Shown here: one piece after another, positions 1 through 45,105 of the stretch
How the letters are laid out: each line of letters opens with the position of its first letter
Numbering within the stretch: the stretch's first letter is position 1
Assembly (NCBI RefSeq): GCF_004010195.1
Contig: NC_057718.1
Location: 62,604,311-62,668,310 of the forward strand
DNA length: 64,000 nucleotides
DNA from: Chiloscyllium plagiosum
Lineage: Eukaryota
Direction: 5' to 3'
Position numbers and translations under genes: made by a program
Notes under the pieces: model-generated
The model's database searches: none
What the model saw: only the letters and a program-made list of their open reading frames with translations
What the model was told of the DNA's origin: nothing

Positions 1-479
1 TACAAAGTAACAATTTATAATGGCCTAGATTCTGATGTAAGTGACAAAAGATTAACTGTCACAGACATTTGGCAAGCTTTTAAATGCAGATTTCCTCCAA
101 TCTTGAGTCTTTTCCAGCAGGGCATCCATTTACAAGGGATTTGTGTTCAGGAACAGAAACAGCAAATAAAAACAAAGTACTGCAAGTGCTGGAGATCTGA
201 AACAGCAAGCTTCTTCAACAAATCCAATTTATGTGGAGTGATTTGGTTAAATTCAAAATCAGTGTCTTAAGTTGAACAAAGCAACTACAAAGACATAAGA
301 GACAAATTGACTAACTTTGGAAACTACATTTTAAAAATATGCCCATAGGCATACAGTTCCAAAAATGTAGTCAAATCATTCATATTACACCACAAATATA
401 TATTGACTTAGGGATAAAGACTCCATGAGAGAGGCACAGCTAATGAGAAATTAAGAATAGTGTTTGATGAAAGGAAGAG

Positions 480-1400: not shown

Positions 1401-1639
1401 GATTCAGAACCTAAACCTGAGCTATAAATCTTCTCACAACTCGCTAGATACACAAACAGGCAGAAAAACTATAAACCAGGCCTAACTTTTTAAACACCTT
1501 TTTAGATTGGAACTGGCGGGCACTCATTTCATTCCTGGTCTATCTGACCATAGTTGTGAAGAAGTTGGATTCACTGACAGCAGCTTCTGTACTTTTGCAG
1601 TCATGGCTACTGGACATTGATTTTGCCTGATTGTCTTGA

Positions 1640-2900
1640 ATATATCCAAGTGCTGTGTTATAACATCTTTAATAATAGCATCCAGCATATCCCTTATGAC
1701 AGATGTTAAGCTACCTGGCCTATAGTTTGCTGCATTCACCACCCACCCTTTTTGAATAAAGGAATTACATTAGCCATTTTCTAATTTAAAGGAACTTCCT
1801 CTGAATCAAATAGTTTTTGGAAAATTAAAACCAATGCATTAACTACTTCACCGGCTACTTGTTTTAAGACTCTAGGATGAAATCCATCAGGATCTTGGGA
1901 CTTGTCAACTCCCAGTTCCAACAATTTACTCAGCACCCTACTTTCCCTGGCTAATTGTAATTTTTCTGAATTTCTTCCTTTCAATTCCTGATTTACAGCT
2001 ATTTACAGGATGCTACATGTATCCCCTCTAGTGAAGACTGATGCCAAATATCTGATCAATTCATCTTCCATCTCTTTATCCTACAATACTAATTCCCCAA
2101 GCTCATTTTCTATATGATCAATACTTACTTTGTTAACTATTTTCTTTTATAAATATCTGAAGAAAATTTTCTTAGCAGTTTTATATTTCTGGCTAACTTT
2201 CTCTTATACTCTTAATTTTTTCCTCCTTATTAATCATTCAGTAATTTGCTTGCTTTTTAGTATTCTGCCCAATTCTCTATCCTGCCATCTATCTTTGGAG
2301 ATTATATGTCTTTTCTTTGAGTTTGAGACTATCTTTGACTTTTTTAGTTAACCACTGATGCTAGCTCCATCCCATAGAATTTTTCTTATTTGTTGAAATG
2401 TATATATTCTGCACTTTCCAGAATATCTCCTTAAATGTTTGCCACTGCATCTCTATTGACCTATCCCTTAACCTAAATTGCTAAGTTCATATTCGTTAGT
2501 TCTGTTTTCATGCCCTCATAATTGCCCTTGTTTAAATTCAAAATGGTCATCTTGAACACACATTTCCTCCCTTAAGCTGTGTGTAAAATGCAATCATATT
2601 ATGGTCATGCTACCCAGCGCTGCTTTCACTGAGGTCAGTAGTTAATTCTATTTTATTTGTCAAAAGCAGGCCTAAGTATAATCACGTTGGTGCCATGACA
2701 TACTAGTCTAAGAAATTGTCCCAAAAGCATTCAAAGACTACTTTATCCTCATCTGATTTTTCTATCTATATGTGGGTTAAAATCTCCCATGACAATTGTT
2801 GTATCCTTTTGACAAGCTCTCGTTTTTTCTTCTTTGATATCCTGTTCTATCATGTGGTTACTGTTAGGAACCTGTACCACAACTCCAACAAGTGACCCCC
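1640..2900 (-). mobile_element. Decayed CR1 LINE ORF2 fragment
   Basis: ORF 1781-1984 has the CR1 motif DKSQDPDGFHPRVLKQVAGEVVNALVLIFQ. Confidence 0.8.
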
Positions 2901-3196
2901 CACCCCCGGCCAACTTCTATCATTCCTAAGGTTCCAATCTAGGTAATCTTGCAACCACATCTCAGTTACGGACACTAGATCGTACTCAATTATCTGAATT
3001 TGTTCAACTAATTCATCTGTTTTGTTTCGAATGTTATATTAAGATTTGTCCTTGTATTATTTTTGTAATCTCTGGTCATACCTGCTGATTTCCTCTTAGA
3101 TTTGAATTCTCTGTTCTTGTCATTTTTTCCAGTTGCATTTATTGAACGTAATGTTGTATCAATGTATTTGTAATTAATGCAACTTTTAACTTTCAG

Positions 3197-3288
3197 ATCA
3201 AAGAAGAATGGTTGAAATAATTGGACATCTGACAAAATTAAGGTTTGGAGAAAAAATTGATCGCACCAAGGGAAAAGAAGCAAAAGAG
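3197..3288 (+). CDS. Internal coding exon of unidentified host gene A (phase 1 to 0): DQRRMVEIIGHLTKLRFGEKIDRTKGKEAKE
   Basis: Acceptor ttttaactttcag|, donor GAG|gtaaat, 92 nt open frame, non-repetitive context. Phase-compatible with 16620-16711. Confidence 0.7.
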
Positions 3289-3933
3289 GTAAATTGGGAT
3301 TCCATCAGTATTTTACAATATAATGCACTTTGGATTCTTACCTGAAGTGTTTAATATGTTAATCTACTTGTTAAAGTCTATGGAAAACATCCCTTGAAGA
3401 GTGTGACTTCATTGTGTTTCCCTGTGACAGGAATATTTCCTATTAATTTGATTTGAGGCAATCTGTATATGGGCTCACCTCATTCATAAGATGTACTTTT
3501 GGTGGGAAGAGAAGGAGAAAATAACTGAATAGTTGCAATCTACTGTTTAAACACTTGATGGAAATGCTTTCAAGTGCCTGTACAGACCCATTTGATGCTT
3601 CCATCTCAGTAACCCTTCGATATTCAGAGTACATATTTACTGAGAAGTTGCCTGAAATGCTTCAGAATCCTACAGGACAGCATTGAACCTGTGAGAGGCA
3701 GTGCTTTCTGTGTCTAAATGAAAAGAAACAGTAATAGGCCTTTCAGCGTGCTCTATTAGTTAATAAGAATATGGCTGATCTGTTGGGTTTCAAATTTCAC
3801 ATTGCCATCTATTCCCAATAACCACAGATTCTTGTTAAGCAAGAGAATCAATCAACTTCTGCTTTGAAAATTCAATGACTGCTTCCACTGCTGCCTGAGG
3901 CAGAGTTACAAAGTCACACAATCCTCTGAGAGA

Positions 3934-4251
3934 GGGCAGCACGGTGGCTGAATGGTTAGTACTTGCCTCACAGTGCCAGGGACCTGAGTTCAATTCCAGC
4001 CTCGGGCGACTGTCTGTGTGGAGTTTGCACATTCTCCTCTTGTCTGTGTAGGTTTTCTCCAGGTTAGGTGAATTGGCCATGCTAAGTTGTCCATAGTGTT
4101 CAGGAATGTGTAGGCTAGGTACATTAGCAAGGAGTAAATGTAGAGTAGTGGGTGGGGGAGTGGATCTTGGTGGGTTGCTCTTCGGTGGGTGTGTGGACTT
4201 GTTGGGCCAAAGGGCCTGTTTTCACACTGTAGGGATTCTATGATTCTATGA
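3934..4251 (+). mobile_element. HE1-type tRNA-derived SINE inserted in a CR1 3' fragment
   Basis: Head gggcagcacggtggctgaatggttag with A/B boxes, V-SINE-like core (gtgtggagtttgcacattctc), (gattcta)n tail. Confidence 0.9.
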
Positions 4252-4395
4252 AAAAAACTTCATCATCTTCGTCCTAAAAGGTTTACCCCTTAATTTAAAA
4301 TAGTGGTACCTCCTTCTGAACTCATCAAAAAGACAAACATCCTAAACAGGTCCACCTTTCAAGAGTATTCAGGATCTTATACACTTCAATCAAAT

Positions 4396-4888
4396 CATAG
4401 AGTAGTACAGCATGGAAACAGACTCTTCAGTCGAACTCAACCATGCTGACCAGATATCCTAAACTGATCTAGTCCTGTTTACCAGCATTTGGTTCATATT
4501 CCTCTCAACCCTTCCTATTCATGTACCCATTCAGATGCCTTTTAAATATTATAATTGTACCCGCCTCCATCACTTCCTCTGGCAGCTCGTTCCATGCACC
4601 ACCCGTTGTGTGAAAATTTGGTCCTTAGGTCTCTTTAAGTGTTTCCCCTCTCAGTTTAAACCTATACTCTCTAGTTTTGGGCTCCCCTACCCTGGGAAAA
4701 AAGACCTTGGCTATTCACCCTATCCATGACCCCATGTTTTTATAAACTTCTATCAGGTCACCCCTCAGCTTCAGATTCTCCATGGAATTCAGCCTCTCCT
4801 TATAGCTCAAACTCTCCAATCCTGGCAGCATCCTTGTTATTCTTTTCTGCACCCTTTCAAGTTTAACAACATCATTTCTACAACAGGG
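4396..4888 (-). mobile_element. CR1/HER1-type LINE 3' fragment
   Basis: catagagt tail and CR1 RT C-terminal/3' UTR sequence, similar to 17580-17885 and 62036-62470. Confidence 0.8.
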
Positions 4889-5748
4889 AAGTTAAGCGCA
4901 GTTAACTGTCCAAATTCTGCAACTGGGGTGGAGAGAGCATGCCTTGTAGTTGGCCCTCTTGGCATGGATGATTTAGGTGGTTATCCTTGGGACTGATTGG
5001 GCATACACGGGTTAGATGGGAGAGGCCACGCATTTGTCGAAGTGTCCTCAGGCAAATCGTTAGGGAATCCTCCACCAATTAATGCATGTTGGCATCACCC
5101 TTTCTCTGTGAGGGAAAAGTGCAATGGAGTGGGGTTGAAGTTTCTCATTCCTCCTCTGCCTTACCATCAAAGCTGAGCGCCAATTGCTACAGCGTGGAGT
5201 GCAGGACTGAACATGTGTCCAGCAGACAGTATGTACTCAACTTAGCTTTCCCTGGCTGCTGTGAACCACTCCAAAGAAATTACTAGATGCAAGCATACTG
5301 GAGTCAGCACAATACAGATAAGATTGACAGACTCCTTCATTCTTTGATCAAGCTTACCAACTGACTCTGAAAAAGCTGTTTTCTGCTCCTGATGCAGTCA
5401 TCAATGTCCAAGACCATGGGATGGGCACAATGAACAGGTGCCTAGATATCTCCAGCAATCCTCTCAATTGAAGAAACATAAGGCATTTCTTCCTTGACCA
5501 GCTGCAGAAACATGCCTGTGGAGTGATCATCAAATTGGTTGCCCAAATTTAACGTGGGTAAGAGTTCCCATGAGGTGAAAATTAATGAGCTGGTGGAGAG
5601 GGCAGGTGAAAACATTGCTGGTGTATCCTCTAAGGCTTCAGTGGCTTCCCCCTCAGAATTGGAGGTGATATTGAGAGTCTCAGGTGTAGGCCTCTGCTTG
5701 ACACTGAGAATCTGAAGAAGAAAGGAGAAGGAAGTGGTTGTGTAAATG

Positions 5749-7024
5749 ACCATAAGACATAGGAGCAGAAATGAGGCCATTCGGCCCATCGAGTCTGCTC
5801 CACCATTCAATCATGGCTATGTTTCTAAATCCCATTCTCCTGCTTTCTCCCTGTAATCCTTAATCCCCTTAACGATCAATAATCTATCTATCTCCATCTT
5901 AAATATACTCAAACACCTAGCCTCCACGGCCTTCTATGGCAGTGAATTCCATAAATTCACCACTTTTTGGCTGAAGAAATTTCTCCTTATCTCCATTCTA
6001 AAAGGTCTTCCCTTTACTCTAAGGCTGTGCCCTCAGGTCCTAGCCTGTTCTACCAATGGAAACATCTTCCCAATATCCACTCTGTCCAGGCCATTCAGTA
6101 TTCTGTAATTTTCAATCCGATCACCCCCTCACCCTTCTAAACTCCATCGAGTATAGTCCCAGAGTCCTTAAACGTTCCTCATATGTTAATCTTTTCATTC
6201 CTGGGACTATTCTCGTGAACCTCCTCTGAATGCGCCCCAGGGCCAGTACATCCTGCCTGTGATATGGGGCCAAAAACTGTGCACAGTACTCTAAATGTGG
6301 TCTGACCAGGGCCTTATAAAGCTTCAGAAGTACAAGTTCAAGTTCTCTCAAAATAAATGCCAACATTGCATTTGCTTTCCTAACTCCTAATTAAACCTGC
6401 AAGGTTGCCTTGAGAGAATCCTGGACTAGAATGTTCAAGTCTCTTTGCACTTCAGACTTCTGAATTTTCTCCCCATTTAGAAAATCGTCTATGCTTCTGT
6501 TTATCAAAGTGCATGACTTCACACTTTCCCACGTTGTACTCCACTTGCCACTTCTTTACCCACTCTCCTAACCTGTCCACATCCTTCTGCAGCCTCCCCG
6601 CCTCCTCAGTACTACCTGTCCCTCTACCTATCTTTGTGTCATCTGCAAACTTAGCCAGAATACCCTCAGTTCCTTCATCTAAATTGTTAATGTATAAAGT
6701 GAAAAGTTGTGCTCTGAACGCTGACACTTGCAGAACACCACTTGTCACCAGCTGCCTTCCTGAGAAAGACGCTTTTATCCCTACTCTCTGCTTTCTGCCA
6801 GGCAGCCAATCTTCAATCCATGCTTGCACTTTGCCTCTAACACCATGTGCCCTTTTCTTACACAGCTGCCTCCTGTGCGGCACCTTCTCAAAGGCCTTCT
6901 TGAAGTCCAAGTAGATAACAACCATTGGCTCACCTTGGTCTAACCTGCATGTTATTTCCTCAAAGAATTCTAGCTGATTTGTCAGGTATGACCTCCCCTT
7001 GATGAAACCATGCTTTGCCCTATT
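5749..7024 (-). mobile_element. CR1 LINE, 5'-truncated (RT to 3' tail)
   Basis: ORFs 6452-6925 (YLDFKKAF...FADDTK) and 6121-6366 (LVRPHLEYC); cataaga tail. Confidence 0.92.
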
Positions 7025-7562
7025 TAAAAGGCATAAATGCTTGTGTAGATTAAGAACGAACGAGTATTAACATTAATGAGAGAGCAGCATGAACCTTGCT
7101 GGATTGAGCAGCCATTGAGGTCTCACCATCCCCACGTGAACAGTCATGCTGCTGTCCAACTAAGTCCACTGTTTTCTCCTCAAGTGGGGTGAAGGGCCTA
7201 ATGGCTGCTTGCCCCTTGCTAGTTCTCAACCTCTTGGCCCAGTTATGGGCCATTTCTTCCTATAATGAGACAATGGGAGGATTTGAATATAGTGGAAGTT
7301 GATGAAAGAACAGTTAGTGATAATACAGGATTGTGGGGGGGGAGCTGGTAAGGTGGACCCCAGTAAGTGTGTGGAGCGCAGATGGCAGGATGGGTTAGTC
7401 GTAGTTGGGAGTATAAGGTGGGTGAGAACCATTGAGTGGACATGATGCATACTATAGTGAGCTCTTTTTATTTGTTCATGGGAAGCGGGCCACATTTGCT
7501 TTGCCATCATTTATTGCGCATTCCTGATTGTTCAGAGGACAGTTAAGAATCAACCAGATTGT

Positions 7563-8762
7563 TGTGATGACAGGTGTGAGATTTATAAATTTATTTATGT
7601 TTTGTAGTTTGGATTTTAAACCAGTGGCATAGAGGTTTCAGTCTGTTTGTGTGAAGGCATTCAATAATTAACTAGGGTAGTCTGTCCAGAGCCATGATTT
7701 TAAACCAGTATGTGCCAGAAAACAGATGACTTAAGTCTTTCTGGAATGTTAATGAAAGATTAGATTAGATTACATTACATTACAGTGTGGAAATAGGCCC
7801 TTCGGCCCAACAAGTCCACACTGACCCGCCGAAGCGCAACCCACCCATACCCCTACATTTACCCCTTACCTAACACTACGGGCAATTTAGCATGGCCAAT
7901 TCACCTGACCTGCACATCTTTGGACTGTGGGAGGAAACCGGAGCACCCAGAGGAAACCCACGCAGACACGGGGAGAACGTGCAAACTTCACACAATCAGT
8001 CGCCTGAGGCGGGAATTGAACCCGGGTCTCTGGCGCTGTGAGGCAGCAGTGCTAACCACTGTGCCACCGTGCCGCCCACAAGTTTGTTTATATTGTGGGG
8101 ATTTATGACAGGGGCGCAAAAGCTTTGAAAGACATTAGCTTACTTTTGGGTTTAGAATCCTCAAAGATTTAATTTGGCTTTGAAAATTGGAAAGCTTGTG
8201 GATCAATTTTAAGTTAGATGCACGGAGATGCTCTTCTATAAAAAGGTGACTGTTCAAAGTGGTTAAGGAAGTAGGTAATTTGAAAGAGTGTAATTTGTGA
8301 AACAGTGTAGTTGAAACCAGGAGTGCTTGCTTTAAAATCTGCATTGGTTACTCAAAGTTGAAAAAGTCTCAGGAAAAGCTTTGCAGATCACAGGACAAGA
8401 ACTGAGAAAATAGTAAAGTCAAATCTACACGTTGGATAGGAAAAGAAAACTTTTCTTCTGTTTTATTTATCTGTAAAGTGGCAGTGCTGGGGAATAGATA
8501 AAAGTTTGCATTACTGTGTAAATTGAAATCTTTCAAGTAATATTGTGTATATTGTTTGGCTTGTTTTGGTATGTTTTTATTTTTCTTTTGTTATAAGATT
8601 CTTTTTTTTAAATGTTGAAACCAAATCTGCAATCTGGCATGCTTATGTTTCAGTAGAAGACTACCATGTTAAACCTTAAAAAGAGCAAAATATGATTTGT
8701 CTCACCAGATTTTATTCTTGGTTCTGACATGTTGAGTAGTAACAAAAGCTGGGATTACAACA
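7563..8762 (+). mobile_element. Probable solo LTR (TG...CA) containing an HE1 SINE
   Basis: Begins tgtgatga and ends attacaaca. Interrupts an older SINE-like sequence. Confidence 0.55.
7757..8077 (-). mobile_element. HE1-type SINE, young full-length copy
   Basis: Reverse complement of gggcggcacggtggcacagtggttagcactgctgcctcacagcgccag; (agatt)n tail. Confidence 0.95.
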
Positions 8763-9989
8763 GTTTGGAATTGTATTTAGACCAGGCCAGTAGTTACAGT
8801 AGGTTTCCTTCCTTAAAAATTACACTAGAGTTGCAGTCCATCAACCTTGAGGTGCACTTGCAGTAGCAGAATTTAAATGAGTGCTGGACCTTGCAGGGTA
8901 CATGTGATCATTCACCTTCTTCCTGATCTGCTGTGCATTCTGTCTAATCTTAGGCACAGCATTAACTTAGGCCACTATCTGTGTCCAGGCTGATTATGCC
9001 TGATGGCATGGCCTCTTTTTATAGTCTGCAGAAAAAATGATGGCTGTCCTCACATGCCTCCAGGTCCCAGTTTACAAAACAGGAAGTTAACTCACCTTCT
9101 TGGGCCATTTCCTCACTGATAATGGTCAAATGCCACAGTGTGAGGAGCAGTTCCTAGTTTATTTGAAGTTATCTGCAGCTGGGCTTTAAATACGATGGTG
9201 TGGTGTAAATATTGGAAGCAAGCGTCTCCACCTCTCCTGCCACGCAATTCTACACGAAGGGTGCCATCAGATCTGATTGCATAATTCAGAAGATTACATG
9301 AGAAAAGTTGTTCTGAGCCATAGTGGATAAAGTGCCATAAATCTTATTTAACTAAACATTGAGTATGGAAAAACTCCACCCATTGTTCTTTATAATCATC
9401 TTGCACTATTTTTATAGGTGACAGGTGCCATTTAACAAGCTGTTTCCTTAATTTCTAAGCATACAGATATTTTCACAATGTCACATTAGTCCACTATCCG
9501 GTTTTGTATCTTCTCAACAGCATCATCAGGATTGCAATAAATTTTAAGCGTGGATGACCAATTTATCTTTTGTTAGTTTCTTTATGCGTTATTTGACCCC
9601 CTCCTGCTTTTCCTAATCTAAATCTATCATAGGTCTGTATTCTGTTCTCCCTCATAAGCGTGTCTGGCTTCCTTTTAAATGCATTCAGATTATTTGTTTC
9701 AAACACTCTGTTTGTCACAAGTTGCACAATTCTTGAGTAAAGACATTTCGGCTTAATTCTCTATAGTTTTTCTAGGCACTTTCTCATAATTACGGAGAGT
9801 TATACTTTTCCCCACAAGTGGAAACCTTCTTTGCCCATCCATTCTATTAAAATCTTTTGTAGTTTTATTTACCTAATTAATTCATTACGTACTGTACTTT
9901 TTTTCAAGGAAACTGACATCGTTTTGCATGATTGAATGTAGATATCTTGGGGTTATGGGCCGAGACAAGGTTAGACTAATGGGGACTTC

Positions 9990-10365
9990 CTAAGATGTAG
10001 CAAGGATAGGCTATTTGGCCCATTGAACCTGTTTTATCATTCAGTGACATCTGGGCTGTCTCGAGAGTGACCTTACCTCCACATTCTTGATTGTTCCCTA
10101 ATCCTCAACTGCTTTGTAGATCAAAAATCTAACCAACTCAACTTTGAATATTTTCAATGACCCAGCACCCACAACTCTGTGGAAAGAGAATTCCAAAGGC
10201 TAATGACCTTCTGAGAGAAGGAGTTTCTCTTAATTTCAATCTTAAATGGGAAACCCCTTCTATTTAAGCTATCCTCCCTAATTCTAGACTCCCCACGAGA
10301 AGAAAAATCCTCTCAGCATCTACTTTGTTAAGCACCCTCAGAAGCCTGTGTGTTTCAATGAGAAG
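9990..10365 (-). mobile_element. CR1 3' fragment
   Basis: Similar to the 3' part of 5749-6100. Confidence 0.65.
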
Positions 10366-10629
10366 AAAATGCTATAAAGCAATTTGTAAATAATTAAAAC
10401 TTATTGCTTAGCCGAAGGAACAAGGATGATCAGTGAGCTGGACTTAACTTAAGCTAGGACATAAGCGGTACACTTTTTGATTTCTCAAGTTTACAGAGGG
10501 TAGGATAAAAGAGGATGGCCAAAAATAGTCAAGTCTGGAGATGGAATAAAATTTGGATGAAGGTTTCAGCAAGGCAGGGGTAGGGTTGAGCAATATACAA
10601 TTCATAGTGAGGGTACAGATATATGTTTG

Positions 10630-10824
10630 AGGAGAAAGTGAGGTCTGCAGATGCTAGAGATCAGAGCTGAAAATGTGTTGCTGGAAAAGCGCAGCAGGTC
10701 AGGTAGCATCCAGGGAACAGGAGAATCGACGTTTCTGAAGAAGGGCTTATGCCCGAAACGTCGATTCTCCTGTTCCCTGGATGCTACCTGACCTGCTGCG
10801 CTTTTCCAGCAACACATTTTCAGC
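10630..10824 (+). mobile_element. Palindromic Penelope-derived mini-element with perfect 71-bp arms and 16-bp TSD
   Basis: Arms 10665-10735 and 10755-10825 are exact reverse complements. TSD tacagatatatgtttg at 10614-10629/10825-10840. Unpaired tail of about 35 nt. Confidence 0.92.
10735..10762 (+). ncRNA. Minimal hammerhead ribozyme core (PLE type)
   Basis: CUGAAGA-A-GGGC-UUAU-GCCC-GAAA-CGUC: all core nucleotides present, 4-bp stem II, self-complementary ACGU stem III, GUC triplet. Confidence 0.8.
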
Positions 10825-11290
10825 TACAGATATATGTTTGTAAATTCAACTTGAAGTCAACTTATGAACAATTGATATAGCTTCAAATGGTTGCTGCAAA
10901 AGAGGATAGAGTTTCTGGCTAAGCAATGTTTGTGGAGTGAATGGACAATAATGGTTTCAGTTTTCTTAGTATTTAGCTGGAGAAAATGTCTGCTTATACA
11001 CTATTAGATGTTGGAAAAGCATTTTGACAAGTTTGAGACAGTGAAGCGGTTGAGATAAATGTTGGTGAGGTAGTGGCAGGTATTGCCAGTGTACTTTATA
11101 ATTTCTCATATGTTTTTGGCTGATTTCACTGAGAGTCAATATAGAAATGAGAATTAGCAGGGAGCCAAATATAAATCCTTGGGTAAATCAGAGGCACCAA
11201 TAGGAAAAAAAAGCTATTATGAGTAGATAGCTAAGAAAAAAACAGAACTCTGCATCCCCCCGCCAGCTGAACAATGATGAAGAGGCCTTC

Positions 11291-11385
11291 AACAAAAACA
11301 GAAGTTGCTAGAAAAGTTCAGCAGGTCTGGCACCATCTGTGAAAAAAAATCAGAACTAACGTTTCGTGTCTGGTGACCCTTTCTC
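11291..11385 (-). mobile_element. Penelope pLTR fragment with truncated hammerhead (3' half only)
   Basis: Minus strand reads aagggtcaccagacacgaaacgttag; shares the gctggaaaag...gcaggtc terminus motif. Confidence 0.65.
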
Positions 11386-13289
11386 TGGCCTTAGAGGTGG
11401 GAAGTGTTCTCAAGTGGAAGATGTTTCTTAAAGGTGACAGGTTATGAAGGACAAAGAGAGAGAATTTATCTTTTGTTTTATATAGACACTTAGCACATCA
11501 TTTGTGCCTATGAAATGGGCCATTTTTGAACTGGGGCAGAGAAATTTAAGCATCGAGTTCTGGGAAAATGAGCATCATTTTCAGAATGAAAATATATTCA
11601 AGGATTTTGGAAAGAGATGATGAAAACAGATTTGAAGAAGATGAGGACGGTGCTTGTGGAGTAAGTACCATTAAAAGTATCAAGTAACATTAGAATCCCA
11701 AAAAGAATTTGGATCGTCAGCAGTTTTAGTGGGAATAGAGTGCAAAGAACAGGAAGTAAATCTATTGGACAAAGTGAACTCAGAGATGGAAAGGAAATAT
11801 GGTCATAGGAGATGGAAAAGAAATCATAAAAAAAACAAGTTCAGGGTAGAGCAGAAGGAAATGTATACAGGAAACTTGGCCTGATTCTTTTCCCAAAAAT
11901 ATACTCCATTCATAAAATTTGTAAAAGCATTGGGACTTGAAAATTAGAGTGCAATAACATGCAACATTTCTCCATATAATATTCCACTTTTACCGTGCTT
12001 CAGCATGTTTGTAACAGTCTTCATATTTAAAATATACATTTCATGCCAAGCATAGAACCCAGGGCAAAAACAATTTAAATTGAAAACTGTAGAAAATGCA
12101 GTAGAAATAAACTTTTCTTGATGGAACATGTTCCATGCTGAGTTGCATCAATAGCACTTAGTGCTTTTGATGTTCACAATGTATATCCTTGCCAGGAATG
12201 GAACCCTGGCAAGCCCTTCATGGCCAAGGGGAAGAGGGGTAAATAGGAAAGGCAGATAAACGAATGGATTGAATGTTGGTGCCAAAGAAATCCATAGTGT
12301 CATTACGCTTGTTTGGAGGCAAGGATAAATGAGACAGGGCAGAGGATTTAAGAAGATGGTTTGCAGTCTTGGAGAAGCCAGGGTTATAAGGAAGATAATC
12401 CAAGGATTGTTATCTGTTTTGGCAGGTATTAACAGAACCTGATGGTCTTTATGATCCAACCTGACTTGGTGTTGATTGACTAAACCGTTTTTGCATGTCT
12501 TTTCTAATCAATTTTACATTCAGTGGACTTAAGGCGTTGGGGATGAGGCCCATATTTGGGAACTGGGGTCATGGGGGAGGTTTTTGTGTGTGAACCCTGA
12601 AGGTGGAAGGGGGGAAATTGTGGCTCATAGATCAACAGCTTTGGGGACATGTAACGTGGAAAAATGAAATGGCTTGCAAATTAAAGTGATGGACTCAGAC
12701 CCAAAGTGGTTTCCAAAATGCGCACACAAATGGGCACAGACAAATTATATGTGCTTGGTTAGATAGCAATTATTGGAATGCCTGTGCCCTATGTATACCT
12801 AAAGTGGGCATGAGAGAAACAATTTTCGTTCCTGTTATCTGAAATCAAGAGGCAAGGTAAAATTCCTGACATTGAATTACTTGAAGTTAAATGCCAAGTC
12901 AACAAATGCTACTCTCACGAGGGTGTGTGGCTTGGTCACCAACTTCTGGTGTAGGGGGGACATAAACAAATAATTTCTTATATGGATGACTTTTGGATAC
13001 TTCAAGACTACTACGATCATTTGTGCTCAAGTTAAAGAAAATGTTTCCAAAGAACTTGAAAACTTCGATAGTGCAGGCTGTGTTGAAGGATTACATTGCA
13101 TCTTGGAGACCCAAGGAGGTTAAAGGCAAAAATAGAAAACAAATTCAGGGATCGATGCTAAATGATCCCATGATTTATACCTGCACCACTAATAGTAATA
13201 ATTGTTGTTCAAGAATTGAATTCTTAAATCACTCATGATGCAGAATGGCAAAGTAAGTGAAATATTTTGATTTCTGCATCATTCATTGA

Positions 13290-13870: not shown

Positions 13871-14863
13871 GAGGGTCAGCATGGATACCACCATTACACG
13901 TGGGGTCACCACCCACTATGTACGCAGCAGGTATTCATGTAACGCAGCCAACATTGTCTATAATGCGCTGCAGGCAAAGACACCCTGAGGTATGGTACAT
14001 GGGTGAGACCAAGCAGAGGCTACAACAATGGATGAATGGACAGCGCACAACAATCAACAGGCAGGAATGTTCCCTCCCAGTCCGAAAACACTTCAGTGGT
14101 CTGGGACATTCGACCTCAGACCTTCAGGTGACCATCCTCCAAGGCAGACTTCGGGACAGGTAACAATGCAAAGTGGCTGAGCAGAGACTGATAGCCAAAT
14201 TCGAAACTTATGGGAGTGGCCTCAACCGGGACCTTGGGTTCATGTAACACTACAGGTGACCCCACTGCATTGCACACACGCACATACACACACACCCCTT
14301 TACACTCACACATACATAGACACACACACTCTGACAGACTCACACACACAATTTTGTGGAGTGAATCTGTACTTGCAGAATTACATTTTATTTTGCTCTA
14401 AAACTGCATGAATCCATGTAAGATTCTGTAAATCCCTTTTTTAGAAATCTTTTAGAATCAGTCTGAACTTTGGGGCACAGATAGCCTCACACAGGGCACC
14501 TCACACCTTCAATGCATTTTCTGGGCCAACATAGCACCTATTGTTAAAGTTCACTTAAGAATGTAATTTTAAAAAAAGGATTCTGGGATTTACTTATGAA
14601 AGAACCAAAACTAACATGGTCATTTTAAAAGATGCGAGACTTTACAACAATGCAGGTCTTTTTCAATATATAATTTCAGTTGCATCACACTGTAAACATT
14701 TGCTATAAATTCTGTGTCTTACGATTTTATACTCCACAACTACCTGATGAAGGAGCAACGCTCCAAAAGCTAGTGCTTCCAAATAAACCTGTTGGACTAT
14801 AACCTGGTGTTGTGTGATTTTTAACTTTGTACACCCCAGTCCAACACCGGCATCTCCAAATCA
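13871..14863 (+). mobile_element. Penelope-like element 3' part (GIY-YIG endonuclease plus pLTR with hammerhead)
   Basis: [27 protein letters not shown] is GIY-YIG-like; CA-rich spacer; hammerhead-like motif at 14744-14772. Confidence 0.85.
14744..14772 (+). ncRNA. Hammerhead core variant (AGCU stem III) with G12>A substitution
   Basis: CUGAUGA-A-GGAGC-AAC-GCUCC-AAAA-GCUA. GAAA has become AAAA, consistent with CpG decay; probably inactive. Confidence 0.65.
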
Positions 14864-17885: not shown

Positions 17886-20353
17886 ACTGTATTGATTACA
17901 AATCCTGGTCACAAGCAATCTTGGTTATTTTATTAATCATTGCAAATGGATAATAGTCACATCTGTGAAGTAGAAGTAATCACAGGCAATCTTAAAAGTG
18001 AAACCTGCAGACCAGTATTCACAAAAACAATTTAAAATCTCGTTGACTACACAAGGGCACAGAGCAGATTTTATTTCACCGGGATCTTTCAATATCATTC
18101 AAATGTGTGCCACGTAATCTTTGTATGCTGCTCAGTGCACAACTGGAGCAAGCAATGATGAATGCTGAAGAGCTAGGAGAGTTGCAGCGGTCTTCTGGGG
18201 TATAAGATTAAGTCTTTGAGCAGGAGGAGCCTCATCTTCTGCATGATAGACCACTTCTGCATCTGGTGTAACAAGCCAGACAGGACTCACTTGACACTTA
18301 ATAACTGGGTGCAGTGATCACTCTTTCACTGAAATTTGTTGTTGATCAAAAAGCATTCAGACCCTGATGGTTCACAGAAGCAAATGTGGTTTTCCTTTGT
18401 TTTCTTTGAGAACAATGAAGATGTTATGCTACACTGGGCATTAGAGAAACTCCCTTACGATTTTAAAATGGGATGCTGCTAAGGTTCAGTAACTTCTGTA
18501 GCTTAGAATGATTGTCACAGAAGCAGATGGCGATGTACAATAGCAATGCATTTAAATGTGCAGTTGTATTTGCATTGCACTGTCAGCTGTTCCACGTATT
18601 TGCCCTCATTTACCTTCCTTTCCCTTCCCTTACCTTCCACTACATTCACTGTGAAGAGCATCTCCTGTCAGGTAGTGATTGACCTGATTCATGTTGGGTT
18701 TTAAAAATGGCCAGGAATCTCAGGAGATCCCAAAAGTGGCAAGTACTTCTGTCATTGCTGAGCAGAGAATAATGCAAGGAATGGACCACCTGATGTGATT
18801 GTAATTTCAGAAGTGCAGGTAACCTGCAAAAGGGCAATTAGCATAAGATGTGGAATATATAACATTTCAAAAGCAATATTTCCCAAAACAATTTCAAACT
18901 AGACTATGAACAGCAGAGGTCCCAGCACTGATCCCTGTGAACACCGCTAATCACAATTCTCCACTCCGAAAAGCATCCTTCCACTGCTACCCTCTGTCTC
19001 CTATGACTGAACCGATTTTGTATCCATCTTGCCAGCACACCCCGTTGCAGGCTCTATTATTAATAAGTCCATTTGCTTCTAAATGTGTATAGATTTTGTC
19101 CCTGAGAATCTTCCAATAATTTCCCTACCACCAGTATGAAGCTCATAAGCCTGTAATTTCCAGGATTATCCCTGTTACTGTTAAACAATGAAACAACATT
19201 GACTCTTCCCCAGTCCTCTAGGACCTCACCTGTAGCCAAAGAGGACACAAAGATGCCTGTCAATATTCCAGCAATTTGTTCTCTTGTCTCCCTCAATATT
19301 CTGGGATAGATGCTATCTGAACTCAGGGATACACAACACCTCTTCCCTTTTAATAGCAACCTGGCTTAGAAATTCGACACTCCTTTCCCTGAAATGATCT
19401 CCACCAATTCCTTCTGTTTGATGAATACTGACACAGTATTCGTTTAGAACCTCACCTATGTCTTCTGGTTCCACACATAGATTTCCTCCTTTGTCCTTGA
19501 GTGGGCCAACCCTTTCCTTGGTGACCCTTGTGCTTTTTATGTATGTATGAAAAGACTTAGGATTCTCCTTAATCCTGTTTGCTAATGATTTTTCATGACC
19601 TGTTTTAGCCCTTCTAATACCTTGTTCAAGTTATTTCCTACTTTCCTTATATACTTCAAGAGCTTCATCCTCCTAGACCTCACGTATGCTTCCCTTTTCT
19701 TTTTGACCAAAGTCATAACATCCCTGGTCATCCAAGATTGATGTAGCTTGCCATACCTATCCTTAATTCTTGCAGGAACGAGCTGCTCCTGAACTCAATT
19801 ACCATTTGAAATATCTCCACATGTCCGATGTGGATCTACCCTCAACCAGCTGTCTCCAATTTCTGCCTAACATTGTTGTAGTTCACCTTCCCCAATTTAA
19901 CATCATCACCCAAGGAATGCTGATATCTCTATTCGTGTGTCTCTTAAAACTCACGTTGTTATGGTCACTAATCCCAAAATGCTCCCCCACTGATACTTCA
20001 CTCACTAATTGGCCAACTTATTTCCCAAAACCAGGTCCAGTATAAGCCCTTTCCCGGTTGTACCATTTATGTACTGTGTCAAGAAATCTTCCTGAATGCT
20101 GCTGCATCCAAACCCCTAGCATGTAGTAAGTCCCAAAGGCCCAGTCAATATTGGGAAAGTTAATATCACCATCACAACAGCTCTGCTGTTTTTAGATATT
20201 TCCAAAATCTGTCCACATATTCTCTCCTCTAAATCCTGATGGCTGTTGGGAGGCCTGTAGTGTACCCCCAGCATTGTGATTTCATCTTTCCTATTCCTAT
20301 GTCTTGCTACACAAGTCCTCTGATGTGTTCTCTCTCAGTATGATTGTGAAATA

Positions 20354-20540
20354 GGTAAAAACAATGACTGCAGATGCTGGAAACCAGATTTTGGATTAGT
20401 GGTGCTGGAACAGCACAGCAGTTCAGGCAGCATCCGAAGAGCAGCAAATTCCTGATGAAGGGCTTTTGCCCGAAATGTCGATTTTGCTGCTCCTCGGATG
20501 CTGCCTGAACTGCTGTGCTCTTCCAGCACCACTAATCCAA
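20354..20540 (+). mobile_element. Palindromic Penelope-derived mini-element with central hammerhead
   Basis: Arms about 20391-20449 and 20481-20540; TSD tgtgaaata at 20345-20353/20545-20553. Confidence 0.9.
20452..20479 (+). ncRNA. Minimal hammerhead ribozyme core closed by a long stem I
   Basis: CUGAUGA-A-GGGC-UUUU-GCCC-GAAA-UGUC; the flanks gcagcaaattc/gattttgctgc pair directly next to the core. Confidence 0.8.
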
Positions 20541-21559
20541 TAACTGTGAAATACTCCTTCACCAGTAATGCAAGTCCTCACACCCTTTACATCCCTTTCT
20601 ATCACACCTGAAACATCTAAATCCTGTCCCTCTTTCAGCCATCTCCTTAATCGCAATAACGTCATAGTTGTAATTACTAACCAAAGCTCTGAGTTAATCT
20701 ACCTTTGCCTATTATACTACTTGCATTGAAACACATGCAGTTCAGACCACCTCTCCTGCTCTTTTCAGCAGCGTTTCCCTGCCTGTTTTTGTTCTTAATT
20801 ACATTTGCCTTGGTTTCTATCTCTCCCTCAATTTTGACATCTTCTGCCCTACCCCTCTGGTTCCCATCCCCCGCCACACTAGTTTAAACCATTCCAACCA
20901 CTCTACCATATACCCCCACCTCTGCCAGAACCGGTCCCATTGCCCCATGAATCTGAAACCCTCCTCCTCACATCATCTTTTTAGCCACGTGTTCATCCTA
21001 TATATCCTGCTGTTTCTACTCTGATTAGCTTGTGGCACTGGTAGTAGTCCTGTGATAACTATCTTAAGGGCATACATTTCAACTTTCTTCCTAATTCTCT
21101 ATATTCAGCGTTTAGATTTCATGCTTTTTTAACCTATGTCGTTAGTACTAACGTGTACCATGACCACTAACTGTTTGCCCTTCCTCTCCAGAATGTCCTG
21201 CACCTATCACTAGGAAGGCAGCTCACCATCCTGGACTCTCATTTGAAGCTACAGAAATGCCTATCTATTTCCCTTATGATTGAACCCCCTATAGCTAAAA
21301 CATTTCTATGCCTATTTCTCCCTCCCTGTGCAGCAGAGCCAACCATGGAACCATGAATTTGCTGCTCTTGTTATCCCCTGAGAGACCATTCCCCTCAACA
21401 GTATCCAAAACGGTGTATCTATTTTGCAGGGGAATAGCCACAGAAGATTCCAGCACTGCCTGCTAAGCCCTCCCACTCAGCCTGGTGGTCACACATTCCC
21501 TTTCTACCTGTGGAGTCTGAGACTGTGGCATGGCCACCTCTCTATGCATGCTGTCTATT

Positions 21560-30607: not shown

Positions 30608-31049
30608 AGCAGGAACAGATTTTGGAATCTATACTGAAAACAACAAATGCTGGAGATCACAATGGGTCAGACATTATCCATGGAGAGAGAGCAAGCTAAC
30701 GTTCTAGGTCTAGATGACTCTTCATCAGAATATTACTTGTTATGTTCTCCCATTTCTTTCCTTTCTTTTAGCTTTACTTGTTCCATTCTCAGCCACCATA
30801 TCCGCTCTACCCACCCCCCCCACCCAAGTTTCAAGTCTGCTGTTCTCACATTCAATCACTTAATCTGAACTATCAATATCTTTTCTCCACCAGCACTCCA
30901 CACCCCACCACCACCCCCCTCCAAACTATTGTATAAATGCTGTCCCCATCTACAATTCACTTCAGTTCTGATGAAGAGTCATCTAGACTTGCTCTCTCTC
31001 CCCATGGATACTGTCTGACATGCCATGTTCTCCAGCATTTGTTGTATCC
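30608..31049. mobile_element. Penelope-derived inverted-pLTR element with two opposed degenerate hammerheads and 13-bp TSD
   Basis: TSD ctacaaatgttca at 30595-30607/31050-31062. ctgatgaagagtcatctagac occurs on - (about 30708-30728) and on + (30968-30988). Confidence 0.85.
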
Positions 31050-38350: not shown

Positions 38351-39406
38351 CACTGTTGGAGGCAATCTTACAGTATAGACATGTAAAAGCAACCTGATCC
38401 AAACCATATTGCAATATGAATGAATGAAGTAAATATAGAATTCTGGTGTAAGCATATGAAGATTTTCAACTGCCTAGATTTATAATGTTTTGTAGCCTCC
38501 TTTTGAAGGTTCATAGACTAATTTAGCCATTTTCCTGATCATTAGACATGACCCTTGATACGTCTGTTGGAAACTGCTGCTCATCTTCATGAGGGCTGCA
38601 GAAAGAGTTTGTATTTTTGTACTGTCACGATGATGCAAAATATAAAGTTTTAAATTGGTTGATGAGAATTTAAATATTAAAAACCTTGAACTTTGACATT
38701 GAGAGCAAAAAGCCAAAAATGACTTGGAATAAAATGGCTGCTAAAGTCATAGAATTATACAGTACAGAAGAGGTCCTTCAGCTAATCAAGACTGTATTGC
38801 CAAAATTCTACACTAGTTCCACTTTGCAGCTCTAGGCTCACAGACTTGCATGTTATGACATTTTAAATGCTCATCCAAGCACCTTTATAAATGTTGTCAG
38901 GTTATCCATGGCAGGCAGTGCTTTCCAAACCCCTATAGCCTTTTGTTTTCCCAAGTCTACCTCTAAAATGTGGCCCCTTGTTATTGGTCCTCAATTAAAA
39001 TGAACAGCTACTTCCCACCTTTTTCATGTCCCTCATAATCTTACATACTTCCATCAGGCCCCTTCTCAACCTTCTCTGCTCCAAAGAAAACAACCTCTCT
39101 TCATAGCAAAGATGCTCCATCCCGAGTAACATCCTGGTGAATCTCTAACCATATCTATGCAATCACATTCTTCCCACAGTATGGAGACAAGAACTCCACA
39201 AATTATTCCAGCTCTGGCATAGCCAAAATCTGACCCACTTAAGTTCTCTGCTCTTATATTCTATGCCTCAACTGATTAAAAACAAGTGTCCCCTATGCCT
39301 TCTTAACTATCCTATTAACGTGATCTGCCTTCAGGGATCTGTGACAAGCACTTTAAATCTCTCTATTCCTCTGAGCTTCTGAGAGTCCTGCCATTCATTA
39401 AGTACT

Positions 39407-41015
39407 GGATCAGTGGTGCTGGAAGAGCACAGCAATTCAGGCAGCATCCGAGGACAGGCAAAATCGACGTTTCGGGCAAAAGCCCTTCATCAGGAATAAA
39501 GGCAGAGAGCCTGAAGCATGGAGAGATAAGCTAGAGGAGGGGGGGGGGGGGGAGAGAGTAGCATAGAGTACAATAGGTAGGTGGGGAAGGAGATGAAGGT
39601 GATAGGTCAGGGAAGAGAGGGTGGAGTGGATAGGTGGAAAACGAGCTGGGCAGGTCGGACAAGTCCGGACAGGTCAGGGGATCGAGTTTCTGGAGGTTAG
39701 AAGCTAGGATGAGGTGGGGGAAGGGGAAATGAGGAAACTGTTAAAATCCACATTGATGCCCTGGAGTTTAAGTGTTCCGAGGCGGAAGATGAGGCATTCT
39801 TCCTCCAGGCGTCTGGTGGTGAAGGAGCGGCGGTGGAGGAGGCCCAGCACCTCCATATCCTCGGCAGAGTGGGAGGGGGAGTTCAAATGTTGAGCCACGG
39901 GGCGATTTGGTAAGTGCCAGGATGGGAGGGTGGGTGGTAGGGGGGCGTGGACCTGACCAGGTAGTCACGGAGGGAACGGTCTTTGCGGAAGGCTGAGAGG
40001 GGTGGGGAGGGAAATATATCCCTGGTGGTGGGGTCTGTTTGGAGGTGGTGGAAATGTCGGCGGATGATTTGGTTTATGCGAAGGTTGGTAGGGTGGAAGG
40101 TGAGCACCAGGGGTGTTCTGTCCTTGTTGCGGTTGGAGGGGTTGGGTCTGAGGGCGGGGGTGCGGGATGTGGATGAGATGCGTTGGAGGGCATCTTTAAC
40201 CACGTGGGAAGGGAAATTGCGGTCTCTAAAGAAGGAGGCCTTCTGGTGTGTTCTGTGGTGGAACTGGAATTGGGAATACGGGATGGTATATTTGCAGGAG
40301 GTAGGTGGGAAGAGGTTTAATCCAGGTAGCTGTGGGAGTCGGTGGGTTTGTAGAAAATGTCAGTGTCAAGTCTGTCGTCACTGGGGATGGAGAGGTCCAG
40401 GAAGGGGAGGGATGTGTCAGAGATGGTCCAGGTAAATTTAAGGTCAGGGTGGAATGTTTTGGTGAAGTTGATGAATTGCTCAACCTCCTGTGGGAGCACG
40501 AGGTGGCGCCAATGCAGTCATCAATGTAGCGGAGGAATAGGTGGGGAGTGGTGCCGGTGTAATTATGGAAGATCAACTGTTCTACGTAGCCAACAAAAAG
40601 ACAGGCATAGCTGGGGCCCATATGGGTTCCCATGGCTACCCCTTTGGTCTGGAGGAAGTGGGAGGATTCAAAGGAGAAATTGTTAAGGGTGAGGACCAGT
40701 TCGGCCAAACGAATGAGAGTGTCGGTGGAAGGGTACTGTTGGGCTCGTCTGGAGAGGAAAAAACGGAGGGCTTAGAGGCCCTGATTATGGCGGATGGAGG
40801 TGTAGAGGGATTGGATATCCATGGTGAAGATGAGGCATTGGGGGCTGGGGAAACGGAAGTCTTGGAGGAGGTGGAGGGCGTGGGTGGTGTCTCGAACGTA
40901 TGTGGGGAGTTCCTGGACTAGGGGGGATAGGACAGTGTCAAGGTAGGTAGAGATGAGTTCAGTGGGGCAGGAGCATGCTGAGACAATGGGTCGGCCAGGG
41001 TGGTCAGGCTTATGG
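39407..41015 (-). mobile_element. Penelope-like retroelement (RT, partial GIY-YIG, pLTR), 10-bp TSD
   Basis: GRPIVS, MDIQSLYTSI, QTKGVAMG, FLRYIDD; TSD attaagtact at 39397-39406/41016-41025. Confidence 0.95.
39466..39493 (-). ncRNA. Intact minimal hammerhead core in PLE pLTR
   Basis: CUGAUGA-A-GGGC-UUUU-GCCC-GAAA-CGUC. Confidence 0.82.
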
Positions 41016-41819
41016 ATTAAGTACTCCCTTGTTATGTTACTTCTTCTGAAGTGGGTCACCTGACACTTAACAGAGTTAAATTCCATCTGTTACTTACCTA
41101 ACCTGACAGCAGTGTTCAAAGTACATGGGGTTAGTGGGAAGATTTCCAAGTCACCTGAGGAAATTTACTCACAAGTGCAAACAATCAGAGAAAATTAAGG
41201 AGCCGAAAGCCTGTGAAGGGCTTGGAGAGGGGAGAGGGATTGCTGGAGCCAAGGGATTAAAGTTGGGGCCAAATGCCAGGGTAAGGAGCATGCCGCTGTT
41301 TTACCAATGCTGGAAGGGGAGTTTAGGAGCCACATCTTTAGTGAACAGGTAGACAGTAACGTGAGTCACAGAGTGTTGAGGTGTAAGAAGGAGGCTGAAA
41401 AGTAATCTGGGAGATAGGAAGGCCATAAGCGTGATAGGGAAATGGAAAAGCAGCAAGGGAGTTGGGAGCAAATAGAGCAGGGAATGGGAAAGAGAGATAC
41501 ATGTTGTAAAGAAGAGAGAACAATTTCAACACAACAAAGGAACACTCAGCAAACTAGGAGCGAGGAAGATTTGAAGTAACTGAGGTAATGAATTATTTAC
41601 AAATTAATGTGGAATCCCTAGTTAATGTTGCATGTGACCAGAAGCTGGCGAAGCAGGCTTGAGGATATGAAAAGACTGCTCCTGTTCCTACTTCTTATGT
41701 TCCATAGGAGACAAATGCCATGGATGCTATCATGATGAACACTGTGTCAATTGTTACATTTAAATCTGAGTTTGAGATCTGAGATGCAGTAAAAGGGTAA
41801 TATCTGCCTGGTTAAAATA

Positions 41820-42160: not shown

Positions 42161-42246
42161 CACTCTCAGCTACCTTCTCCCCATACCCCACTCCCCTCCC
42201 AATTATCTCTCCACCCCGGAGGCTCCCAGCCTCATTCCTGATGAAG
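42161..42246 (+). mobile_element. Inverted 86-bp copy of the neighbouring PLE pLTR, ending within the hammerhead
   Basis: Reverse complement of 43112-43197 with about 2 mismatches; ends cctgatgaag. Confidence 0.85.
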
Positions 42247-42514: not shown

Positions 42515-45105
42515 ATGATGACATAAAAATAGGTAAGAAAATGAGTTGTGAAGAGGACACATGGAGCCTACAAATTGATACAGATAGGTTAAGTGAGTGT
42601 ACGCGATTTGCTAAACCTTTGCCCAATGTGGGGCAGTGTGAAATTGTGCAATTGGGCAGAGAGAATAAAAAGAAGCATGTTATAAATGGTGAGAGGTTGC
42701 AGAGTTCTGAGATGCTGAGACAGTCCTGGTGCGTGAATCACTGAAGGATAATATGCAGGAACAGCAAATAATCAGGAAAGCTGATGTTATGCTTTATTGC
42801 AAGAGGAAATTGAATGCACCAGTAAGGAAGTTATGCTTCAGTTGTACAGGATATTGGTGAGACCGCATTTGGAGCACTGTGTACAATCCTCGTCATTGTA
42901 TTTACAGTATAATGTTAATGCATTAGAAGCAGTTCAGAGAAGGTTTACTGGACTAACATCTGAAGTGAGGAGACAGTGAGGTCTGTAGATGCTGGAGATC
43001 AGAATTGCGAGTGTGTTGCCGGAAAGGCATAGGAGGTCAGGCAGCATCTAAGAAGCAAGAAAATCGATGTTTCGGGCTGGAGCCCTTCATCAAGAATGAG
43101 GGGCTGGAGCCCTTCATCAAGAATGAGGCTGGGAGCCTCCGGGGTGGAGAGATAATTAGGAGGGGAGTGGGGTATGGGGAGAAGGTAGCTGAGAGTGCAA
43201 TAAATGGATGGAGGTGGAGTTAAAGGTGATAAATCGGAGAGGAGGGTGGAGCAGATAGGTGGGAAGGCAGATTGACAGGTCATGAGGGCAGTGCTGAGCT
43301 GGAAGGTTGGAACTGGGGTAAGGTGGGGGGAGAGGAAATGAGGAAACTGGTGGAGTCCACATTGATGCCCTGGGGTTGGAGGGTTCCGAGGAGGAAGATA
43401 AGGCGTTCTTCCTCCAGGCGTTGGGTGGTAAGGGAGTGGTGATGGAGGAGGCCCAGGACCTGCATCTCCTCGGCAGAGTGGGAGGGAGAGTTAAAATGTT
43501 CAGCCACGGGGCGGTGTGGTCGATTGGTGAGGGTGTTGCGGAGATGTTCTCTAAAGCGCTCCATGAGAAGGCATCCAGTCTCCCCAATGTAGAGGAGACC
43601 GCATCGGGAGCAATGGATACAATAAATGACGTGTGGAAGTGCAGGTGAAGCTTTGATGGATGTGAAAAGCTCCTTTGGGGCCTTGGGCGGAGGTAAGGGG
43701 GGAGGTATTGGCGCAGTTTTTGCAGTTCCTGTGGTGGCAGGGGAAGGTGCCAGGAGGGGAGGGTGGGTTTTTGGGGTGTGTGGACCTGACCAGGTGGTCA
43801 CGGAGGGAACGGTCTTTGCAGAAAGCGGATAGGGTGGGGAGGGATGGTGGGGTCCGTTCGTTGGTGGCGGAAATGTCGGCGGATGATACGATTTATGTGG
43901 AGGTTGGTGGGGTGGAAGTGAGGACCAGGGGGGTTCTGTCTTTGTTGCGGCTGGAGGGGTGGAGTTCGAGGGCAGAGGTGCGGGACGTGGATGAGATGCA
44001 TTAGAGGGCGTTTTCAATCACGTGGAAGGGGAAATTTCGGTCTTTAAAGAAGAAGGCCATCTGGTGTGTTCTGTGGTGGTACTGGCCCTCCTGGGAGCAG
44101 ATGCGGCGGAGGCAGGGGAATTGGGAATACGGGATAGAATTTTTGCAGGAGGTAGGGTAGGAGGAGCTGTAATCCAGGTAACTGTGGAAGTCAGTGGGTT
44201 TGTAAAAAATGTCAGTGTCGAGTCAGTCCTCGTGGATGAGATGGAGAGGTCTCGGAAGGGGAGGGATGTGTCAGAGATGGTCCCGGTGAATTTAAGGTCT
44301 GGATGGAATGTGTTGGTGAAGTTAATGAACTGTTCGACCTCCTTGTGGGAGCACGAGGTGGCGCCGATGCAGTCATCAATGTAGTGGAGGAAGAGGTGGG
44401 GAGTGGTGCTCGTGTAACTACAGAAGATGGACTATTCTACATAGCCGACAAAGAGACAGGCATAGCTGGGGCCCATGTGGGTGCCCATGGCTACCCCTTT
44501 TGGCTGGAGGAAGTGGGAGGATTGGAAGAAGAAATTGTTGAGGATGAGGACCAGTTCAGCCAAACGAATAAGAGTGTCAGTGGGGACGTCGGGAGAAGAA
44601 GAAACAGGGGCCCTGGTCATGCATATGGAGGTGTAGAGGGATTGGATGTCGTCTGAAGTGAGCAAATTACCTTCCGCGGAAATGCTAAACAAACTAAGCC
44701 CTGTATCCTCTGGAGTTTAGAAGAATCAGAAATATTTCATAGAAACATACAAGAACTTGAGGCGACTTCACTGAGTGGATGTTGAAAGGATCTTTCCTTT
44801 TTTGGGAGAATGTAGAAGTAGGGCTCATAGTTTAAACATAAGGACTTGCCCATTTTAAACAGGTGAAACATTTTTTTCTCTCAGAGGGTTGAAAGTCTTT
44901 GGAAAAGTCTTGAAAGTAGGCAGATGCAAAACCTTTAAATATTTTTAAGGCAGCAGCAGCTATATTCTTGATTCCTGAGGGGATGAAGTTTGTCAGGAAT
45001 ATGTAGGGAAGTAGAGTTGGGGTTAAAATCAAATCAGCCATGATCATATTGAACAGTGGTACAGGCTCAAAGGGCCAATAGGCCTACTCTTGTTCATTGT
45101 ATGTA
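42515..45105 (+). mobile_element. Old CR1 3' fragment hosting a Penelope insertion
   Basis: LYRILVRPHLEHC...EAVQRRFT; resumes after 44662. Confidence 0.8.
42970..44651 (-). mobile_element. Penelope-like retroelement (RT, GIY-YIG, pLTR), 11-bp TSD
   Basis: DIQSLYTSI, KGVAMG, VIYCIHCSRCGLLYIGETG; TSD tctgaagtgag at 42959-42969/44652-44662. Hammerhead at about 43066-43093 has C3>U. Confidence 0.95.

Follow-up and report, generated by a model that had tools for sequence, protein, structure and literature searches.

The hammerhead-bearing palindrome at 20354-20539 of the 64-kb stretch of Chiloscyllium plagiosum DNA analysed here (the window, taken over its full length) is best explained as one short head-to-head insertion of Penelope-like element (PLE) ends, in which two cDNAs, each primed from one of the nicked target strands, were likely joined by microhomology, and the long stem I that this joining built onto the ribozyme core is likely an accidental and catalytically inert by-product. 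Two inverted ends, one short and one tailed, lie within target duplications, a minimal hammerhead without a stem III loop sits in one of them, and the join recurs in the genome. The features that carry the argument are given below, with relative positions numbered from the hammerhead cleavage site, so that +1 is 20480 and C3 is -27.

20340..20353, + strand: left copy of the target-site duplication, 14 bp, identical to 20540..20553 at 12 of 14 positions
20354..20448, - strand: tail-bearing arm, beginning at about +4 past the cleavage site and ending at the long 3' terminus; its + strand gives the 5' side of stem I
20448..20448, no strand assigned: inversion junction, with at least 1 base (A) compatible with both arms, placed by comparison with natural copy L135 and the native copy 39406-39497
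20448..20539, + strand: short-end arm, from A(-31), 4 bases 5' of the core, through the whole minimal hammerhead to the short 3' terminus
20452..20479, + strand: minimal type I hammerhead with CUGAUGA, an extra A, a 4-bp stem II with UUUU loop, GAA, and a stem III without loop
20391..20540, + strand: predicted rod that closes on the core, with 58 of 61 positions in Watson-Crick pairs
20540..20553, + strand: right copy of the target-site duplication, by sequence comparison with the left copy

The whole insertion occupies 20354-20539 between 14-bp direct repeats with two mismatches, and a tail of about 38 nt (20354-20391) is found on one end only. Both arms match the natural copy L135 at about 95%, the tail-bearing arm in 92 of 97 aligned columns, tail included, and the short-end arm at 89 of 92 positions. 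An inverted, 5'-truncated terminal repeat lies beside a direct one, making a single head-to-head unit; head-to-tail tandem units of the retrozyme type are absent. The base at which the arms meet, 20448, is also the most frequent restart point among the joints listed from DNA contigs (7 of 15), and the contigs of runs X5 and X7, which are broken up at the repeat, do not include an empty site.

An earlier note on this DNA had described a left arm that abuts CUGAUGA and pairs just past the GUC site in a stem I of about 58 bp, and this description holds. C3 of CUGAUGA is 20452 and the first base past the GUC site is 20480; the strands 20391-20451 and 20480-20540, counted from the core, form 58 of 61 possible pairs, the exceptions being pairs 3 (U.U), 14 and 41, and the hairpin region folds at -127.4 kcal/mol (z = -17; 0 of 200 shuffles equally stable). 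The long pairing is thus real, but the helix is not perfect where it meets the core, where two pairs are followed by a mismatch. The 2-4 bp ascribed to the native stem I proved a fair description, the native copy having 2 contiguous pairs, then U.U, then A-U. Folding predicts that stems I and II are formed and the core is open (0.89 and 1.00), and the predicted probability of the first stem I pair, 0.89 here, falls to 0.02 in the native copy 39406-39497 (- strand) and to 0.00 in the copy at 10665-10825. The modelled stem I is a rod broken only by its three single mismatches, with no loop that could contact loop 2. At 20452-20479 the elements CUGANGA, GAAA, UH, stem II and the G10.1-C11.1 pair are all present and GUC is intact, and the order that follows is GAA-A15.1-U15.2-G16.2-U16.1-C17, with zero loop bases between 15.2 and 16.2. 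Stem III reads AUGU (20475-20478) ahead of C17 at 20479, its 15.2-16.2 pair is U.G, and the palindrome for dimer formation is missing; position 20476 carries T in this copy, whereas 47 of 68 RNA reads of the repeat family have C. Probing of 20391-20540 would be expected to find the rod and stem II, with the GAAAUGUC strand reactive. Hammerhead families are absent from the Rfam matches in the 64-kb window (4 matches up to E 1, no ribozyme), and the microRNA matches, far under their cut-offs, were rejected as hairpin artefacts.

The window also contains longer copies that bear this element end, and a palindrome for comparison:

39406..41020, - strand: native element end with hammerhead 39466-39493, after a broken reverse transcriptase (RT)/endonuclease remnant (RVT_1 and translation)
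42975..44660, - strand: long copy of a sister subfamily with broken RT, GIY-YIG-like motif and tailed end (GIY-YIG and translation)
10665..10825, + strand: comparison palindrome with 71-bp perfect arms, the left arm lying over stem III and the cleavage site (arms and fold)

A putative RT-then-GIY-YIG order is seen in translations of the long copies with the same terminal repeat; both Pfam matches are under their cut-offs (RVT_1, E 0.0026, at 39406-41020; GIY-YIG, E 0.0038, at 42975-44660) and both frames are broken. Besides the core at 20452, the + strand of the window has one intact core of this family, at 10735; it is sequestered, and in the 10665-10825 fold the left arm is predicted to pair over the cleavage site. 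Several further repeats were seen in passing. The 42161-42246 (+) arm of the same family ends within the core, with 98% complementarity to 43112-43197; in the 43013 copy a 28-bp tandem duplication spans the 5' half of the core (43100-43135); and a solo copy at 54269-54338 (-) starts at about -30, within the pre-core cluster of 5' ends. At 1076-1273 and 30616-30728 lie head-to-head palindromes that are older, belong to another Penelope-like subfamily and have a longer stem II, and the end of another repeat family at 14650-14850 (+) has a hammerhead-like core at 14744 with its GAAA strand altered. A tRNA-like match at 55275-55356 (-; Rfam tRNA, 53.9 bits, over the cut-off) adjoins a SINE-like repeat, and a reverse transcriptase fragment of another, LINE-like repeat occupies 6455-7066 (-; RVT_1, E 7e-16).

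The rules by which such insertions are built emerge from an unbiased genome sample of 180 stretches of 10 kb at round coordinates (L031-L210; 1.74 Mb without N). These gave 378 anchor hits, 284 of which aligned well to 14 natural reference copies while 94, weak or from older families, were dropped; among the 276 outside the window, 69 had native upstream sequence, gaps or edges removed 7, and the other 200 were truncated arms, 109 with an inverted partner and 91 solo. Per Mb, this amounts to about 159 arms and about 26 palindromes. Where both anchors are present (46 pairs), the ends are strictly matched, 44 being short plus tailed, two being two short ends and none two tails (p 3e-11), and a target duplication of at least 9 bp encloses 35 of the 46 palindromes, compared with 0-2 when flanks are shuffled. 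Most of these duplications (25 of 35) measure 14-17 bp, 11 of them 16 bp with one mismatch allowed, a cluster that is a possible measure of the nick stagger. The truncated 5' ends have a sharp edge: 75 of the 200 lie between -36 and -27 but only 6 between -46 and -37, the solo arms share this peak (34 of 91), and loose ends with mixed flanks pile up at A(-31) in 34, 30 and 21 contigs of three runs. The base at -32, tested as a cap-derived G, is G in 6 of 17 cases, against 4 C, 4 T and 3 A. One complex unit, L025:1290-1720, has two inverted arms, the second of them tailed, separated by read-through sequence and followed by a direct arm, all within one apparent target duplication.

ACGUC is the commonest stem III form of the family (84 of 155 sampled cores). 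Both arms cover stem III in 33 pairs: it is intact on both sides in 16, the arms disagree in 13, and a variant is common to the two arms in 4 (AUGUC in 2 of these). On these counts the AUGU at 20475-20478 is likely the product of decay after insertion, with inheritance as the alternative.

The earlier note had asked whether the junction recurs across copies, and in the 3.56-Gb genome it does. A pattern that demands an intact core with an inverted arm 3-16 bases away gives 536 matches, the 20354-20539 locus included, with 0 in a reversed control; the pattern requires exact anchors and detects CUGAUGA subfamilies alone, and 536 is therefore a lower bound. Stem I is closed without mismatch at the join in 16 among the 100 matches listed of the 536, by eye the commonest single form. 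A DNA search, in which 40 of 2605 candidates were scored, yielded at least 83 matches, and the 30 loci taken from it have the same layout with differing joins, one (L023) having the same join in another subfamily. The genome has two copies of the exact 23-base junction, the second in another subfamily context. Detail was examined at 31 junction-class loci, 30 from the 536-match pattern and 1 from the exact 23-base search. They belong to several subfamilies, have unrelated flanks and carry the core on either arm (17 have it on the short arm, facing a tailed one, 11 have it on the tailed arm, and 3 were classed as short at both ends). They represent insertions independent of one another, many of them with a stem I better than that of 20354-20539. 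In the unbiased sample, a long stem I stands in exact register at 1 of the 155 cores and within 10 bases of it at 7, some without a complete core; extrapolated from that single case, the genome would hold about 2,000 such copies (95% range about 50-11,400). ACGUC is intact in 11 of the 31 junction-class loci, compared with the 84 of 155 sampled cores (p 0.08), which gives no sign of upkeep.

From these observations a course of events can be proposed. Transcription would begin near A(-31), where the sequence resembles an initiator four bases ahead of the core; reverse transcriptase would prime internally at about +60 and about +98, one site per target strand; one cDNA would run off the 5' end of the RNA, as expected of cDNAs primed near the RNA front, and the other would stop near +2 to +4. 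Pre-core bases could then anneal with post-cleavage bases, which would set the arms in stem I register, and no selection for ribozyme function would be needed. Complementarity between the four bases that begin at -31 and those at +1 to +4 constitutes the native stem I, so that this short stem, acting as microhomology, together with truncated arms that often end just 5' of the core, is the likely cause of the join.

The initiator consensus is YYANWYY, and the 5' edge at A(-31) lies in what we take to be an initiator-like sequence of this kind; from the DNA ends and this consensus we infer that A(-31) is the start site. The RNA starts listed show no pile-up at A(-31) or +1, the poly(A) single-cell library being ill-suited to show one. 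An internal promoter has been described for Penelope (PMC2377424). A splice acceptor at -31 was considered and rejected because the truncated copies have unrelated flanks, with no shared exon; an intron end at helix I has been noted in Drosophila virilis (PMC4209133).

For the priming steps, the Poseidon element of Anolis (PAc) offers a working likeness, since in vitro both target strands are nicked and extended and two internal RT start sites define the tail (PMC11167929). By analogy, the short and tailed ends seen here would fit two PAc-like start sites, one per strand. The PAc work, however, reported start sites that did not differ between strands, in contrast to the strict pairing of one short end with one tail in the present genome sample, which is therefore not predicted by the PAc behaviour alone. 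The PAc hammerhead is inactive without protein (PMC11167929), and inactivity is likewise predicted here. The locus gave no RNA reads on its unique flanks in the roughly 2% of run X9 that was read, from which silence is not implied; 346 reads of that run lie on the repeat only, and 99% of them continue into other sequence. None of the RNA runs is listed as containing the locus. A transcript of it, if made, would fold immediately to the rod with stem III unclosable, a long double-stranded RNA and not a ribozyme.

The stops near the cleavage site could also be read as the footprint of self-cleavage in vivo, the tailed cDNA having run off the 5'-OH end left by an active parent hammerhead, a reading that we consider rather unlikely. 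It would account for a tailed arm that stops at +2 to +4, for the commonest join ending exactly at +1 (the 16 among 100 matches listed of 536), and for the 8 of 16 solo arms between -6 and +11 that stop at +1 to +4 (p 0.013, an interval chosen after seeing the data). The +1 join, however, coincides with the native stem I microhomology, and paired arms have no excess at +1 to +4 (4 cases). Genome counts without the in-register joins have no clear step either (1145 at +1 to +4, 1164 at -3 to 0, 1078 at +5 to +8), in a test that is crude because about 55 among the 100 rows listed of the +1 to +4 set are, by eye, single-base slips in native copies. In vitro, moreover, the main template is uncleaved RNA (PMC11167929). 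Run X9 also contains 39 reads in which the arm starts exactly at +1 after one unrelated pyrimidine-rich sequence ending in CAG; these probably come from a single genomic copy that is expressed and cut short at the cleavage site. Fold-back of a single strand by self-priming, as proposed for rotifer PLEs, or inversion of the DNA after insertion would likewise yield a palindrome. Self-priming on an antisense template has been put forward for head-to-head junctions (PMC3846280), and the overlaps of 1-6 bases at 17 of the 46 junctions are compatible with it, but it should mirror the end of the first arm, and 44 of the 46 pairs have different, stereotyped ends; with extra bases between the arms at 28 of 46 junctions and both arms enclosed by the target duplication, such an origin is improbable. 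Finally, the very high copy number of the family and the recurrence of the junction class might suggest a self-propagating MITE- or retrozyme-like unit that spread together with its junction. This is scarcely credible, given that the exact 23-base junction occurs only twice, the second time from another subfamily context, that junction points vary between copies, that subfamily letters are common to both arms of a copy and different between copies, and that the loci read contain no tandem arrays.

Twin cDNAs joined by microhomology thus remain the preferred origin, and the question is then what the long stem I does for the ribozyme. The earlier note proposed a structurally reinforced ribozyme that may be better at cleaving. 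On this view the stem would pre-fold the core, and the copy would outperform the native form as a homodimer or with the aid of protein, a proposal that has little chance of being right. In its favour, stems I and II are predicted formed and the core open, unlike in the 10665-10825 copy, so the structural sense of reinforcement survives, and the core, G10.1-C11.1 and GUC are intact. Its homodimer is also predicted at +6.8 kcal/mol against +9.5 for the native homodimer, 2.7 cheaper, a small gap for a model of constrained folding relative to two free monomers in which the core is an unstructured loop and the kinetic trap is ignored; the perfect ACGU copy L224 comes to +5.5 kcal/mol in the same comparison. 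Yet the loopless A15.1-N15.2-G16.2-U16.1 means that stem III can form only between two molecules, and in the double hammerhead each stem I takes its strands from different molecules, so that by strand topology the 58 intramolecular pairs would have to exchange first, a full exchange of arms. Stem III as AUGU is also predicted at +4.6 kcal/mol compared with +0.3 for ACGU (about 4.3 worse), heterodimers with four native copies at +21.2 (two of identical sequence), +24.7 and +27.5 kcal/mol, and a free partner core is absent from the + strand of the window. A perfect rod would lack the contacts between loops 1 and 2 that are stated to be required for efficient cleavage in vivo (PMC4209133).

The literature points the same way: a single minimal Schistosoma motif gave no cleavage and dimers low cleavage (PMC4209133), a short helix III forces dimers according to a review (PMC6765202) and amphibian data (PMC7229834). 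Against the explanation preferred here, a PLE hammerhead is reported to cleave when, and only when, the element's protein is there (PMC11167929), and that protein could also speed strand exchange. Better cleavage is nonetheless unlikely on these models, because stem I is not what the ribozyme lacks, and the copy likely ends where the 'locked' copy of the 10630 region does, with no cleavage; the two were held to be opposite outcomes, and they do differ in fold, but probably not in result. The structural half of the earlier description is therefore predicted as stated, and its functional half is unlikely. A bolder idea is that the stubs in stem I register, hundreds to thousands of them, are trans-acting hammerheads, a self-directed ribozyme defence seeded by insertion errors. 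The left arm would be antisense to the element RNA, and arm plus core would clamp a transcript and cut its GUC after strand exchange; for L224 paired with a native RNA the predicted cost is +5.4 kcal/mol, below the +9.5 of the native self-dimer. We consider this highly improbable, and the 20354-20539 copy would be a poor candidate for it, at a predicted +21 to +28 kcal/mol.

Insertion units of EN+ PLEs have been described with an inverted 5'-truncated end beside a direct one, a one-sided tail of 30-40 bp, target duplication, a hammerhead in the terminal repeat and, in longer copies, RT followed by GIY-YIG (PMC8557442, PMC3846280, PMC2377424), and the first four of these features are alike here, the coding order being putative; 20354-20539 differs in its arms of about 90-95 bases, which are noncoding, and in a join that falls in stem I register. 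With the minimal metazoan PLE hammerheads of type I it shares the conserved core, the extra base between 9 and 10.1, the G10.1-C11.1 pair and the lack of both a helix III and a loop 3 (PMC4209133), and it differs in its stem II of 4 bp, its stem I of 58 bp as against a few native pairs, and its U.G at 15.2-16.2. Non-LTR retrozymes and amphibian satellite hammerheads are alike in a weak helix III, in performing better as dimers and in their link to PLE terminal repeats (PMC7229834, 10.64898/2026.07.22.740005), but they are described as head-to-tail tandems with a partner in cis, whereas here a lone head-to-head insertion carries just one core in the sense direction. The insertion architecture is thus already published, and the locus is real, explained and ordinary. 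A literature search, with most subscription journals outside it, returned nothing on joins in stem I register, on a start 4 bases before the hammerhead or on twin priming.

The locus itself is minor, one among tens of thousands of similar stubs, and its value is that of a data point on Penelope-like insertion. The pairing of a short with a tailed end, together with the sharp 5' edge, suggests that the two arms are both copies of the front part of the RNA, made via the two RT start sites known from work in vitro, and it is also suggested that the native stem I is short because transcription begins there. Copies with a perfect stem I and ACGU, for their part, represent handy natural substrates with which to ask whether stem I or stem III limits these ribozymes.
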